In this document: positions 5,507 through 28,826 of the stretch, piece by piece
Layout: every line of letters begins with the position of its first letter
Position numbering within the stretch: position 1 is the stretch's first letter
Source of the DNA: a virus
Lineage: Duplodnaviria > Heunggongvirae > Uroviricota > Caudoviricetes
DNA: 40,878 nucleotides
Direction: 5' to 3' (one strand)
Virus record (IMG/VR): IMGVR_UViG_2713896799_000014
Span: 1 to 40,878 of that record
Notes under the pieces: model-generated
Databases searched by the model: none
What the model was told of the DNA's origin: nothing
The model's input: the letters and a program-made list of their open reading frames with translations, nothing else
Position numbers and translations under genes: made by a program

Positions 5507-5568
5507 GTTGGTTTTTCTCCAAGGATTTACCGACAACCGAAGCCCTGACTGTTACCGCAGTTGGGGCT

Positions 5569-5793
5569 TCAACTTTTCACTTCTTTAAAGTGCCTACCTT
5601 CTACAGTTGCTCTGAGATAAAAATTCTTATCTTTACCGTTTAGTGCTTCCCAAGCATCAACAATGCACTTATTACAGATGTGGACTTCTCGATAACCAAT
5701 AGCTTTCCTGTCAATATTAGTGAACATAACAGCTTCTTTATCTGTCAATGTGGATGCATGACAGAAGTCGCAATCTATATAAGATACCTTCAT
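5569..5793 (-). CDS. Small Cys4 zinc-ribbon protein, unknown function, inserted between arc and ant
   Basis: 74-aa ORF with CDFC...CNKC; start ATG overlaps arc stop (ATGA); not part of canonical P22 immI. Confidence 0.45.
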   Translation of the reverse strand: MKVSYIDCDFCHASTLTDKEAVMFTNIDRKAIGYREVHICNKCIVDAWEALNGKDKNFYLRATVEGRHFKEVKS

Positions 5794-24337: not shown

Positions 24338-24413
24338 TGGTGCTGGTTAACGGACTTGAACCGCTACCCATTCGCTTACAAGGCGACTGCTCTACCATTA
24401 GAGCTAAACCAGC
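24338..24413 (-). tRNA. Phage-encoded tRNA-Thr (anticodon UGU), hand-folded
   Basis: Minus strand: 7-bp acceptor GCTGGTT/AACCAGC, D-stem GCTC/GAGC, anticodon loop CT-TGT-AA, T-loop TTCAAGT, 3' ACCA. Confidence 0.55.
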
Positions 24414-24418
24414 ATGTT

Positions 24419-24493
24419 TGGCGGGACAGCGTGGACTCGAACCACGATAAGAAGGTTAACAGCCTTCCGTAATGACCTTTATACGACTGACCC
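24419..24493 (-). tRNA. tRNA-like gene, probable tRNA-Asn (anticodon GUU), one acceptor-stem mismatch
   Basis: Minus strand: anticodon stem GAAGG/CCTTC perfect, loop CT-GTT-AA, T-arm CGTGG-TTCGAGT-CCACG, 3' GCCA; acceptor 6 of 7 pairs. Confidence 0.45.
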
Positions 24494-25387: not shown

Positions 25388-26049
25388 GCGCCTTCTCCCT
25401 GTACCTGAATCAATGTGAGGTTTCCGCAGAACACTGCGCCGGTATCGATATACATCTGGTTGGCAAATTTGAGCGGTTTCACTGCTGGCGTATGACCAAA
25501 GATGAACGTGTCCGCTCCTTTGATTTCTTTCACGATCCCGTCTTGTGAGTTGCTGATTCGTTCGCGGTTCCAGATTACCTGCTGATGATCAACTGGCTTT
25601 CCGAACTCGTATTCATCACAAGGATAATCGGCGTGGCAGATGATATATTTTTTATCTTTGCTCACCAGTTCGATGATTAACGGAAGTTCATCTGCTTTAT
25701 GGGCAAGAGCTTTAGCCAGAATTTCTTTGTCGTAATCGAGATTAAAGAACCAGCCACCGCCATTAAGCAGCCAGTGATTGACGTTTCCACGCTCTGATAA
25801 GCCATCAATCATCATTTGCTCATGGTTTCCACGTACAGCTCTGAACCAGGGGAATGTGATTAATTCCAGGCATTCGACGTTCTCTGTACCGCGATCAACC
25901 AAATCGCCAACCGAGATAAGCAGGTCTTTTTTGGTGTCGAATCCTATCGTCTCCAGTTTTTTCATCAGGTTCGTGTAGCATCCGTGCAGATCGCCAACTA
26001 CCCAAATATTTCGGTATTTGCTGCCATCAATTCTTTCGTAATAGCGCAT
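25384..26049 (-). CDS. ninI: Ser/Thr protein phosphatase NinI
   Basis: 221 aa from [25 protein letters not shown]; metallophosphatase motifs GDLHG, GDLVDRG, GNHE. Confidence 0.9.
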
Positions 26050-26233
26050 CTCTTTCACTCCATCCGCGATGAACCATGAGAACGTCGTTGACGATGGCGT
26101 GCATTTTCCCGTCTTTATCATCAACGTATTTTCTGACCGTACCGCGACTACATTTCAGTCTGCGTGCTACTTCTGTCTGGTTTCCGTATGCTTCAACGAG
26201 CATGTCTGGAATGGTTTTTACTGAGAACGTCAT
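26027..26233 (-). CDS. ninH: NinH
   Basis: 68 aa [37 protein letters not shown] matches lambda NinH. Confidence 0.9.
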
Positions 26234-26832
26234 GCGGCCTCACTTCTGCTATTTCGCAGGTCTTTGAGTTTCTGTTGGTACTCTGCCTTGATCGCCTTGC
26301 ACTCTTCGATAGTCCAGCGATGGCGGTTATGGTTTGATTCGATTTCGTCTACTGCTTCCTGCCCGATTCGGTTAATAAGTTCGACGCGATACGGAACGAG
26401 ATTTCCGCTTTTATGCTGGTTGCACACCACGCATTGCTTGTGAATATTGCGTTCATCAAATCGGAGTTGAGGTGCCGCAGAAGTTGTCCGGTAATGTCCG
26501 GCATCCCACTGAGCAGACGTGAGCGTTCCGCACGAGATACATGGTAAGTCGCGGTCTCTTTCTCTGATGAAGGCGTTTACGGCTTGTTGGGCTTGTTTAA
26601 TCCAGTAACTGCGGGGCTTTAAGGCGAGTTTTCGAATCTTCAGTTTATCTTTCTGTTTCTGCTCCTCTCGTCGTAGTTTCTTCTCTGCTGCTTTTTCCGC
26701 TTTTTCGCGTTCTTTACTTCGTCGTTCGAGTGCTATCTTTGTTCCACAAATCTCATTACACCAATATTGATTTTGATATTTTGGTATAAACCATTCATTG
26801 CAACATTTACATTTCCTTCGATAGATTCGCAT
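26230..26832 (-). CDS. ninG: NinG (Rap-like recombination-associated endonuclease), variant N-terminus
   Basis: 200 aa from [15 protein letters not shown] with AAAGGAG upstream; C-terminal 170 aa match lambda NinG. Confidence 0.85.
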
Positions 26833-27373
26833 AAGTGCTCCTTTCGTTGCCGGAAAAATCACCGTAATACTTATCTCGGGCTTCTTCAGCAACTAGTACC
26901 GCTAACTCCAGATCATCAAAGCATCCGAAGTGTTTACTCTTGCCATGGAAACCTAGCCTAACATTCCATTTTTTCTGTCGTTTGTGCCAAGTAACTCCTC
27001 TGCAACCTGATTTGCTATTCTTTCGGATCCTTATATTTCTTGAATTTTCTATTGGCAGGCATTCTCTTAAATTTTCTGGCCTATTGTCGGTCCTAATTCC
27101 ATTAACGTGGTCAATTTGACCAGCAGGCCAACGATTATGAGTTATGTAAAAAACTAAGACGTGAGTTTTATATCTACGCCCATCTATCATGATCATTGAA
27201 TAACCGTTGGAATCAAAAGTTCCAGCAACACTATTTAATGCTATCCTTCCCTGAGTGGGAACTTTCCATCTAAATACCCCGGTAGATTTATCGAAACTTA
27301 GTAACTCAAATATCCTTTTAACAGTTAAATCTTCTCTTTTACGGTTACATCGTCTTCGCGCTGGTTTAGCCAT
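26807..27373 (-). CDS. HNH homing endonuclease with AP2-type DNA-binding domain
   Basis: HNH motif [33 protein letters not shown] and AP2-like [20 protein letters not shown]; first 9 codons MAKPARRRC copy the ninG start. Confidence 0.7.
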
Positions 27374-27542
27374 CGTCTTCTTCCTCGTGCATCGAGCTAT
27401 TCGGATCGCTCATCAGTTCTGCGCAGCAATCGGAGCACACGTGAACTTCCAGCACATGCAGCTTCTTACCGCAGTTAGCGCACGTTAAAGCCCGCTCGAC
27501 GCTTTCTTTCTGGTATTGAAGGGATTGGGATGGGCTAAGCAT
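27366..27542 (-). CDS. ninF: NinF
   Basis: 58-aa ORF hand-translated as [40 protein letters not shown]; matches lambda NinF. Confidence 0.85.
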   Translation of the reverse strand: MLSPSQSLQYQKESVERALTCANCGKKLHVLEVHVCSDCCAELMSDPNSSMHEEEDDG

Positions 27543-27909
27543 TATTGGCGTCCTGCATCATGAGAAAGACAATCATGGCAGCGCGGAGTGGGTTATTGTC
27601 TATGGTAATAAATTCACAAAATCTATCCGCCTCCCACCAATATTCATTCTTCATTCCATGATTATTTCTTTCGTATGCACATATGCTGATCTGATGTTTT
27701 GCGATTACAGGCCATGCAGCTCTCGGATCATTGCAGTAGTCAGGTAAAGGGTTTAATGGCTCAAGACTTGTATCAGCATTTCCGTAATACCATTTATTGG
27801 TATTATTCCCTGATGTTTCAGGCTTACATGCCCAAAGGCCCTTAAAAATTATGTCTCCTACCATTCTGTTAATTTCAAAATCACTTAACTGTGAATAATC
27901 CATTGTCAT
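27535..27909 (-). CDS. Hypothetical nin-region protein (NinX-like position)
   Basis: ORF between ninE and ninF; start at Met13 overlaps ninE stop (ATGA). Confidence 0.5.
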
Positions 27910-28082
27910 TTCCTCGCACGATATCTTAGCCACCGGATATCCCACAGGTGAGCCGTGTAATTGAAGGTTTTTACGTCAGATTCTTTTGGGATTGGCTTGC
28001 GTTTATTTCTGGAGCGTTTCGTTGGAAGGTATTTGCAGTTTTCGCAGATGATGTCGGTGAAACTTCGTCGCTGTCGTCTCAT
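27906..28082 (-). CDS. ninE: NinE
   Basis: 58 aa from [30 protein letters not shown]; start overlaps ninB stop. Confidence 0.7.
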
Positions 28083-28525
28083 GCCGCCCTCCCTTTTCGT
28101 TGTGACCATTCATACTCTCGCCGGGAGTCATCACTCCACCGCACGTTGCGCTCTGAGCCGAACCAAAACATGATTTCGATAAGCTCAGTCATGCTGGCCT
28201 TTCGCATTTTGCTGGTACGCACGCCAAGCATGACAACGCCACCGTCGATACCAGGAACACTTCGTTGCTCCAGTTTTTTGGTCTTAAGCCACAGGGCAGT
28301 GAACAGGTCTTTCCAGTCTTCCGGTGCCAGCCGTTGACCATGCCATAGCACCTGACGCGAAACATCGTTCAGCATCGGCCACATACGGTCATTCTGCGCT
28401 TTGCTGCGTTTTGGTTCTTTAAGGTGGACTTCGTGGGGTGACTTGTCGTCGATGGGAAGTGAGAGTATTGCGTCTATGGCGTTATTTCTGATTGCTTCGT
28501 TGCGAAGCATGTATATTTGCTTCAT
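28079..28525 (-). CDS. ninB: NinB (Orf-family recombination mediator)
   Basis: 148 aa with LWACL/DVSRQV...WHG-like core resembling lambda NinB. Confidence 0.8.
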
Positions 28526-28826
28526 CGAAATTCTTCTCTTTAATTCCAGCAGCTCTGATAGCTTTCATCACTGCAATTACCGTTTTGTCCTTCCCATCCT
28601 CATGCCCCATCGCATAAGCACCTTCTTCACCATCTTTCCAAAAGTCGTCATTCGATTCGGGCCAGTCGATATCCAGTTCAATAGCTGCTCGCGATGCCTG
28701 CCATGCCTCCCATGCAATCTCGACCTTGATGTGCATAATCTTCATCACGTCACTTGAAACGTGATATTTGTTTTTAAACCATTCTTCAAACTGCTTTCTT
28801 GATTCGTCCATATTCCTCTCCATCAC
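28482..28826 (-). CDS. Hypothetical protein, 114 aa
   Basis: ORF in the nin operon upstream of ninB; no family recognised. Confidence 0.5.
   Translation of the reverse strand: MMERNMDESRKQFEEWFKNKYHVSSDVMKIMHIKVEIAWEAWQASRAAIELDIDWPESNDDFWKDGEEGAYAMGHEDGKDKTVIAVMKAIRAAGIKEKNFDEANIHASQRSNQK

Follow-up and report, generated by a model that had tools for sequence, protein, structure and literature searches.

The HNH ORF at the ninF-ninG junction

The window analyzed here, by which is meant the whole 40,878-nt stretch of virus record IMGVR_UViG_2713896799_000014 (positions 1 to 40,878), corresponds in its entirety to an integrated P22-like prophage. On its minus strand, it carries a typical lambdoid nin gene row, in the order ninB, ninE, ninX, ninF, an open reading frame (ORF) for an HNH-type nuclease, ninG, ninH, a phosphatase gene, and Q. 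The HNH ORF, wedged between ninF and ninG, is the subject of this report, and the coordinates of its parts and of the neighboring genes are collected in Table 1. An initial annotation, made by a model from the sequence alone, had described the ORF as a free-standing homing endonuclease that landed in the 5′ end of ninG and captured its translation start. The comparisons described below bear this out as regards the landing site and the captured start, placing the insertion in ninG codon 10 and leaving the ninG ATG, with the ninG Shine-Dalgarno (SD) sequence, as the only start. The cassette is made up of the native ninG SD, ATG and first 29 nt, an endonuclease body, and a foreign version of the first 28 ninG codons with an SD of its own. 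The identity of the protein and the anatomy of the insertion can be regarded as nearly certain, and the complete proposition, that a free-standing HNH-AP2 homing endonuclease cassette resides in ninG codon 10 and spreads by homing, is judged from sequence comparison to be probable.

Table 1. Features of the HNH cassette and adjoining nin genes in the window (SD, Shine-Dalgarno; GC, guanine plus cytosine; AF2, AlphaFold2)
Feature	Coordinates	Strand	Basis
Predicted HNH-AP2 endonuclease ORF, 188 aa including captured leader	26807..27373	minus	ORF list; Pfam; phrog_99; AF2 model
HNH (beta-beta-alpha-metal) motif, residues 68-113, with D88, H89, N101, N110	27035..27172	minus	
AP2-type DNA-binding domain, residues 123-171	26861..27007	minus	
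Ribosome-binding region of native ninG, GAGGAAGAAGACG, used by the HNH ORF	27374..27386	minus	alignment; related loci
Native ninG 5′ remnant, ATG plus 8 2/3 codons (MAKPARRRC), in frame with the HNH ORF	27345..27373	minus	lambda/Sf101 identity
AGGAG SD for restored ninG, within the 3′ end of the HNH ORF	26838..26842	minus	sequence; 5 nt spacing to ATG 26832
Repeat, left copy CGAAGACGATGTAA, native ninG codons 6-10	27345..27358	minus	sequence
Repeat, right copy CGAAGGAAATGTAA, foreign ninG codons 5-9, includes HNH stop	26807..26820	minus	sequence
ninG (rap), 200 aa, intact chimera of foreign 5′ end and lambda-type body	26230..26832	minus	Pfam NinG
Foreign AT-rich ninG 5′ end, codons 1-28	26749..26832	minus	alignments; 28% GC
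ninF, 58 aa, upstream gene	27366..27542	minus	Pfam NinF, 50.4 bits; ORF coordinates; lambda and Sf101 alignment
ninX	27535-27945	minus	
ninE	27906-28109	minus	
ninB	28079-28525	minus	

Anatomy of the insertion

Alignment of the ninF-ninG junction with those of lambda and Sf101, a comparison proposed in the initial annotation, defined the element's boundaries at 27345 and 26748. The window is identical to both phages through ATGGCTAAACCAGCGCGAAGACGATGTAA (29 nt, 27373-27345) and then diverges, with homology to lambda-type ninG returning only at TGTGGAAC (26748), in ninG codon 29. Between these two junctions, 64 nt in lambda correspond to 596 nt in the window, of which 512 nt (26833-27344) are particular to the HNH gene and 84 nt (26749-26832) make up the divergent ninG 5′ end. 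Judged against the uninterrupted junctions of lambda, Sf101 and many E. coli prophages, the apparent insertion point is inside ninG codon 10, and the predicted mobile unit is the HNH gene together with the 84-nt foreign ninG 5′ end, replacing 64 nt of lambda-type ninG. The initial annotation had included the HNH gene in the insert but drew the insert too small, as the foreign ninG 5′ end, which occurs in the same 538 genomes (see below), belongs to it as well.

The N-terminus of the HNH ORF, MAKPARRRC, is encoded from lambda ninG's own ATG, and the ORF shares 8 nt, ATGGCTAA, with the last 8 nt of ninF; both the NinG-like start and the overlap onto the ninF stop had been recognized at the outset, and the former can now be stated as 29 nt identical to lambda and Sf101 ninG. 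This remnant is unchanged in 64 of the 65 further copies of the cassette that were compared, and the ribosome-binding region ahead of it is kept even in copies lacking the rest of ninF. Since the HNH ORF contains no further ATG, GTG or TTG ahead of its conserved domain, the captured ninG ATG is the sole available start.

At its other end, the HNH ORF terminates at a stop of its own (TAA, 26809-26807), and ninG has a separate start (ATG, 26832-26830) inside the HNH ORF, an arrangement that is neither that of an intron nor that of an intein; a search of the window with Rfam likewise revealed no intron. The overlap between the two genes is 26 nt long, counted to the end of the stop codon, and it is annotated in the same way in phage AU6Stx1 and in RefSeq E. 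coli genomes. The initial annotation had correctly credited the restored ninG with its own ribosome-binding site (AGGAG) and a divergent N-terminus, but the restart that it placed 22 nt downstream is in fact this 26-nt overlap. An imperfect direct repeat brackets the element, its two arms being the native and foreign copies of the same ninG codons, and deletion of the DNA between them would result in an in-frame chimeric ninG.

Restored ninG retains a near full-length match to its Pfam family (NinG, PF05766; 283 bits over residues 4-194 of 200). Beyond the boundary, it is 98% identical to lambda, and its foreign 5′ end is only ~58% identical to the 64-nt lambda-type stretch that was replaced. 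The N-terminal cysteines are kept, with C8, C11, C25 and C29 corresponding to lambda C9, C14, C28 and C32, although the spacing between the first pair is two residues shorter than in lambda. In a search for the source of the foreign 5′ end, tblastn found nothing above ~62-65% aa identity among phages, and the only matches from a large protein database were incomplete copies of this same E. coli NinG. A partial ninG 5′ match in H174 was considered as a possible shorter conversion tract and rejected, as it reflects an IS2 insertion in ninG.

The insert was described at the outset as conspicuously AT-rich, and base composition agrees: the guanine plus cytosine (GC) content is 38.9% in the HNH-specific part and 28% in the divergent ninG 5′ end, versus 47% for the entire window, 53% for ninF and 48.5% for the remainder of ninG. 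The ninX gene is similarly AT-rich relative to its neighbors (40% GC), and the HNH insert is therefore not the only part with low GC; the ninX segment also varies among otherwise similar prophages.

A predicted I-HmuI-like nuclease with an AP2 domain

The initial annotation had proposed an HNH nuclease with an AP2-type DNA-binding domain and had suggested a search with hidden Markov models. That search gave a match to Pfam HNH_3 (PF13392) of 42.7 bits, well above the cut-off of 24.8 (E 4e-11), and a match to AP2 (PF00847) of 22.2 bits, which for the single sequence lies under the cut-off of 33.3 (E 2e-4). Among the PHROGs, the protein belongs to phrog_99, HNH endonuclease (E 1e-71). In an alignment with 14 database relatives of 31-42% identity, residues D88, H89, N101, L102, R103 and N110 are invariant. 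When solved structures were searched with the single sequence, only a weak AP2 match was obtained; with the family profile, I-HmuI was reached at E 2.7e-8, with D88-H89, N101 and N110 in register with VDH...TNLR...KIN, and the AP2 domain was matched to its solved counterparts in WRI1 (5e-11), TEM1 (4e-7) and AtERF1 (3e-3). The catalytic and metal-binding roles of the Asp-His pair and of the two Asn residues are presumably those of the corresponding residues in I-HmuI.

Structural modeling gave a similar picture. The AF2 model has a mean predicted local distance difference test score (pLDDT) of 87.8, its HNH domain adopts a beta-beta-alpha-metal fold, and its AP2 region forms a three-stranded sheet packed on a helix, resembling solved AP2 domains. 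The nearest fold is that of the homing endonuclease I-HmuI (PDB 1u3e), at 18% identity in the structural alignment. Homologues start a few residues ahead of a conserved L..LL.YDP.TG.F.W segment, which indicates that the first ~10 residues of the window protein are an extra leader; residues 1-10 are modeled at a pLDDT of 65, without secondary structure and outside the region conserved among homologues. The last nine residues, encoded where the ORF overlaps ninG, are similarly of low model confidence and devoid of secondary structure. The protein is, on these grounds, a predicted I-HmuI-like HNH nuclease with an AP2 DNA-binding domain.

It is scarcely credible that the ORF instead encodes a nin-region protein that cooperates with, or was split from, NinG/Rap, or a packaging-associated HNH factor. 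While NinG is itself a recombination endonuclease, and its first nine residues and translation signals are common to the HNH ORF, there is no NinG similarity past the 29-nt leader, and Pfam and PHROG searches return only HNH_3, AP2 and HNH endonuclease. Moreover, most lambda-type ninF-ninG loci are without the HNH ORF, and the terminase genes lie elsewhere in the window and do not adjoin it. The ORF was consequently rejected as a NinG isoform or packaging HNH on the basis of domain content and genomic position. An end-to-end match to a non-endonuclease nin protein and a lack of HNH catalytic residues, both raised in the initial annotation as possible objections, were not found in these searches and in the family alignment, and D88, H89, N101 and N110 are all in place.

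Distribution and population signature

The HNH gene was detected in 538 of 5426 complete E. coli genomes, in all cases at an identity of at least 99%. The foreign ninG 5′ end, searched alone, was likewise found in 538 E. coli genomes, and in every one among the matches listed it fell under the paired annotation of NinG and HNH endonuclease. Together, the equal counts and the annotation indicate that the HNH gene and the foreign ninG 5′ end behave as a single unit. The gene is already annotated as an HNH endonuclease in ~10% of complete E. coli genomes and is thus not rare. Carriers include prophages of O157, O111 and O26 Shiga toxin-producing E. coli (STEC), and the cassette also occurs in prophages of Salmonella enterica, with P22-like prophages and Stx1 phages among its contexts. 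In the phage collection, the gene was present only in the Stx1 phages AU6Stx1 and SH2026Stx1 (99.4% identity, annotated as HNH endonuclease), and 3059 phage records possess relatives of less than 60% identity, many of them annotated as homing endonucleases. Annotation of the start site is inconsistent, giving proteins of 188, 201 or 215 aa (e.g., H3H26_gp36 of AU6Stx1, L001:3213-3818).

The two closest protein relatives are 44% and 47% identical to the window protein, and neither is in a nin region. An endonuclease I gene precedes one of them on a short metagenome contig, and the other is on a 1.5-kb contig; as clues to a donor, these contexts were uninformative. A scan of GTDB species representatives for relatives yielded one distant Planctomycetota match and no useful context.

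The window's cassette was compared with 65 further copies, drawn from 59 IMG/VR loci and from annotated loci. Upstream of the cassette, these copies fall into two classes. In the first (25 of 65), ninF is present. In the second (40 of 65, including AU6Stx1 and SH2026Stx1), all sequence beyond GAGGAAGAAG, the ninG SD region, bears no relation to the nin region (L001:3792-4337 in AU6Stx1), which places a major mosaic boundary at the cassette's left edge. In the ninF-less context, a divergently oriented gene of 590 aa comes next, and upstream of the captured ATG the frame remains open. Overall, the flanks group into 13 clusters upstream and 7 downstream, and at least 22 pairings of the two occur.

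Within this variety of surroundings, the cassette itself is uniform. Among 47 distinct haplotypes, the mean pairwise difference is 0.15-0.65% in the native remnant and HNH gene and 1.6% in the foreign ninG 5′ end, and it rises to 4.6-8.9% in the rest of ninG downstream and to 29-41% upstream of the remnant. In an alignment of nine loci, variation downstream begins at 26740, 8 nt beyond the boundary. The cassette is polymorphic for presence or absence at one fixed site, with the same junctions in 64 of 65 loci, and this site is empty in lambda, Sf101 and many E. coli prophages; no empty site was found whose flanks match the window at 99% identity or more, the best full-length ones being ~97-98% identical. 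A low-diversity island of this kind, with sharp intragenic edges, centered on the nuclease and set in many backbones, fits the trace that would be expected of recent endonuclease-driven spread.

Could the gene be an inactive relic, i.e., a former homing endonuclease that is catalytically dead and merely hitch-hikes in successful O157, O111 and O26 STEC prophages? This is improbable. Of 66 copies of the HNH ORF, 65 are intact and one is frameshifted, and all six family-invariant residues (D88, H89, N101, L102, R103 and N110) are present. Admittedly, intactness says little when all copies are at least 99% identical, many carriers stem from a few heavily sequenced STEC lineages, and there is an IS2-disrupted neighbor in addition to the frameshifted copy. 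The cassette is found, however, in many unrelated backbones and in Salmonella, and not in a single clone.

Predicted homing and its main rival

Taken together, the anatomy of the insertion and its population signature point to homing, which could conceivably proceed as follows. The captured native SD and ATG would start the endonuclease ORF, translationally coupled to ninF. Because scanning of 25900-28600 revealed neither a promoter-like site nor, on the coding strand, a terminator, the HNH gene is read as part of the nin operon; as a delayed-early gene, it would be transcribed with the other nin genes during lytic growth or induction. The AP2 domain would bind, and the HNH domain nick or cut, the lambda-type 5′ region of ninG in a cassette-less lambdoid genome that resides in, or infects, the same cell. 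Recombinational repair off the carrier would then copy in both the endonuclease gene and the foreign ninG 5′ end. The carrier itself would be protected, since the presumed target stretch has been swapped for a divergent sequence that should still yield a functional NinG. Carrier and empty alleles do differ immediately beside the insertion point, where 64 nt are replaced at ~58% identity by sequence of 28% GC, and the position of the target within this stretch is presumed.

The main rival to homing is a passive mosaic module, which would have entered ninG once by illegitimate recombination and then been spread by ordinary homologous recombination between the conserved nin flanks of lambdoid prophages, with the nuclease serving some other role or none. 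Such a role might be the cutting of competing phage DNA or the exclusion of superinfecting phages. Lambdoid nin regions are highly mosaic, as the 13 by 7 flanking contexts illustrate, cassette-less ninG alleles persist alongside the cassette in the same genomes, and a homing target that is only presumed leaves room for such a view. It does not readily account, however, for two boundaries that both lie in ninG coding sequence and exactly flank a nuclease of a class known for homing, for a roughly ten-fold rise in diversity within 8 nt of the right boundary, or for replaced carrier sequence that adjoins the insertion point just as target-site immunity predicts. On balance, passive spread is rather unlikely, and homing remains the preferred interpretation.

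Several observations nonetheless weigh against homing. The predicted cleavage and homing draw no support from relatives above 50% identity, and ordinary exchange of lambdoid modules could by itself yield a low-diversity island with sharp edges. An identity of at least 99% implies that there has been little time for decay, which makes the intact ORFs weak evidence of selection for activity, and conserved asparagines are substituted (N101S and N97T) in 2 of 66 copies. Furthermore, cassette-less ninF-ninG loci share chromosomes with the cassette, O111 strains having 4-5 flank matches, and most carrier genomes possess a single cassette copy. The coexistence of these empty loci indicates that the element has not swept its resident targets, as would be expected if it were silent in lysogens.

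Other HNH elements in the nin region

A second HNH-AP2-like ORF, of 168 aa, resides inside ninF of E. coli 14EC007 (NZ_CP024131.1; L005:2328-2834, minus strand), just upstream of the ninG cassette. It is intact by translation, although RefSeq marks it as partial, and its flanks span L005:2267-3015. The order of parts is a divergent, AT-rich replacement ninF 3′ end (ending in CERCIYECLNMVEHNEKYKQHRRIKK and a stop), the ORF, and then a native ninF 3′ remnant, so that in its apparent layout this element is the mirror image of the ninG cassette. It was found in 45 of the 5426 complete E. coli genomes at an identity of at least 99%, including E2348/69 and B7A.

The window's own ninF has a cluster of substitutions (27429-27435) exactly at the insertion point of this second element. 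There, the window reads TGCTCCGATTGC (CSDCC), versus TGTGAGCACTGC (CEHCC) in lambda and Sf101, in a surrounding stretch that is at least 96% identical. Both ninF variants occur among cassette-bearing loci, and CSDCC ninF may represent a target allele resistant to the second element.

A third free-standing HNH gene, of 175 aa, is located between ninB and an N6-adenine methyltransferase gene in E. coli Br_190_kylling (L012:4005-4532), and its product is 41% identical to the window protein over 138 residues. The nin region thus seems to collect members of this HNH family. It is tempting, although speculative, to regard the ninF-ninG junction as a hotspot for actively homing HNH-AP2 elements that enter coding sequence with neither intron nor intein, each with a foreign copy of the gene end that it displaces. 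The ninG element would in that case bring a foreign 5′ end and capture the native start, and the ninF element would bring a foreign 3′ end, with the native one left as a remnant; this extension to a pair of elements is offered tentatively.

The surrounding prophage

Other features of the window are those of the prophage at large. A tRNA-Arg(CCT) is present at 1009-1083, and the adjoining 397-aa ORF at 1209-2402 is presumably the integrase gene, an assumption made from its position alone. A sar antisense RNA was identified at 5507-5574 (97 bits), and tRNA-Thr(TGT) and tRNA-Asn(GTT) occur downstream of the Q gene, at 24338-24493.

Comparison with known systems

The nearest structural relative, I-HmuI of Bacillus phage SPO1 (PDB 1u3e), is encoded within a group I intron, and its C-terminal DNA-binding part is a helix-turn-helix, whereas the window protein is free-standing and has an AP2 domain. 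Among free-standing genes, SegF, SegG and MobE of phage T4 are reportedly capable of intron-less homing, in which the gene sits beside its presumed target, the adjacent sequence differs between carrier and recipient, and flanks are co-converted. These T4 genes lie between other genes and have their own starts; the window element, in contrast, lies within coding sequence, is fused to a host start, and completes the host gene with a 5′ end of foreign origin.

Homing endonuclease genes that combine HNH with AP2 form a recognized class, known from phages (among them the 'IPA-HNH' genes of ICP1), cyanobacteria and protists (PMC10448857). Like the window protein, the members described there have an N-terminal HNH and a C-terminal AP2 domain, are free-standing, and occur at a boundary of genetic exchange. 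They differ in being mostly from virulent phages, near replication or structural genes (PMC10448857), as opposed to the nin region of a temperate lambdoid phage; moreover, the window protein matches the canonical HNH_3 family and uses a captured host-gene start.

The carrying of a foreign gene end, with the native end left as a remnant, has been reported for endonuclease ORFs of fungal mitochondria (PMC3630166). In atp6 of Allomyces and in atp6, atp9, cox2 and nad3 of Glomus, a native remnant, an in-phase endonuclease ORF and a divergent gene end are found together, much as in the window. The fungal elements affect 3′ ends (C-termini), belong to other endonuclease families and reside in organelles (PMC3630166), whereas the window element alters a phage gene at its 5′ end. 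The 3′-end counterpart of the window element is the second element, in ninF. In a further example, gene 31 of the P22-like Salmonella phage epsilon34 has the N-terminus of a resident gene fused in frame to an HNH homing endonuclease (PMC2629481). That gene differs in its location in the ea region, in its HNH lineage (kin to Lactobacillus phage enzymes), and in having no replacement gene end described. No description of the ninG cassette was found in the literature, for which only open-access papers were covered, and this absence is not proof that none exists.

Implications for lambdoid phages

Homing endonuclease genes have received much attention in T4, SPO1, ICP1 and other virulent phages, and much less in temperate lambdoid phages, where mosaicism is usually ascribed to general or illegitimate recombination. 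The gene described here currently bears the bare annotation 'HNH endonuclease', with no context. The cassette represents a clean example of entry into coding sequence without an intron or intein, in which the host start is reused and a replacement gene end is brought along. If both the ninG and ninF nucleases cut cassette-less prophages at induction or co-infection, they would help set the mosaic boundaries of the nin region. Finally, if the ninG element is active, it would constitute a site-specific break-maker within the recombination-gene cluster (ninB/orf and ninG/rap) of prophages that are often co-resident, and it could thereby bias exchange around the Q-stx region.

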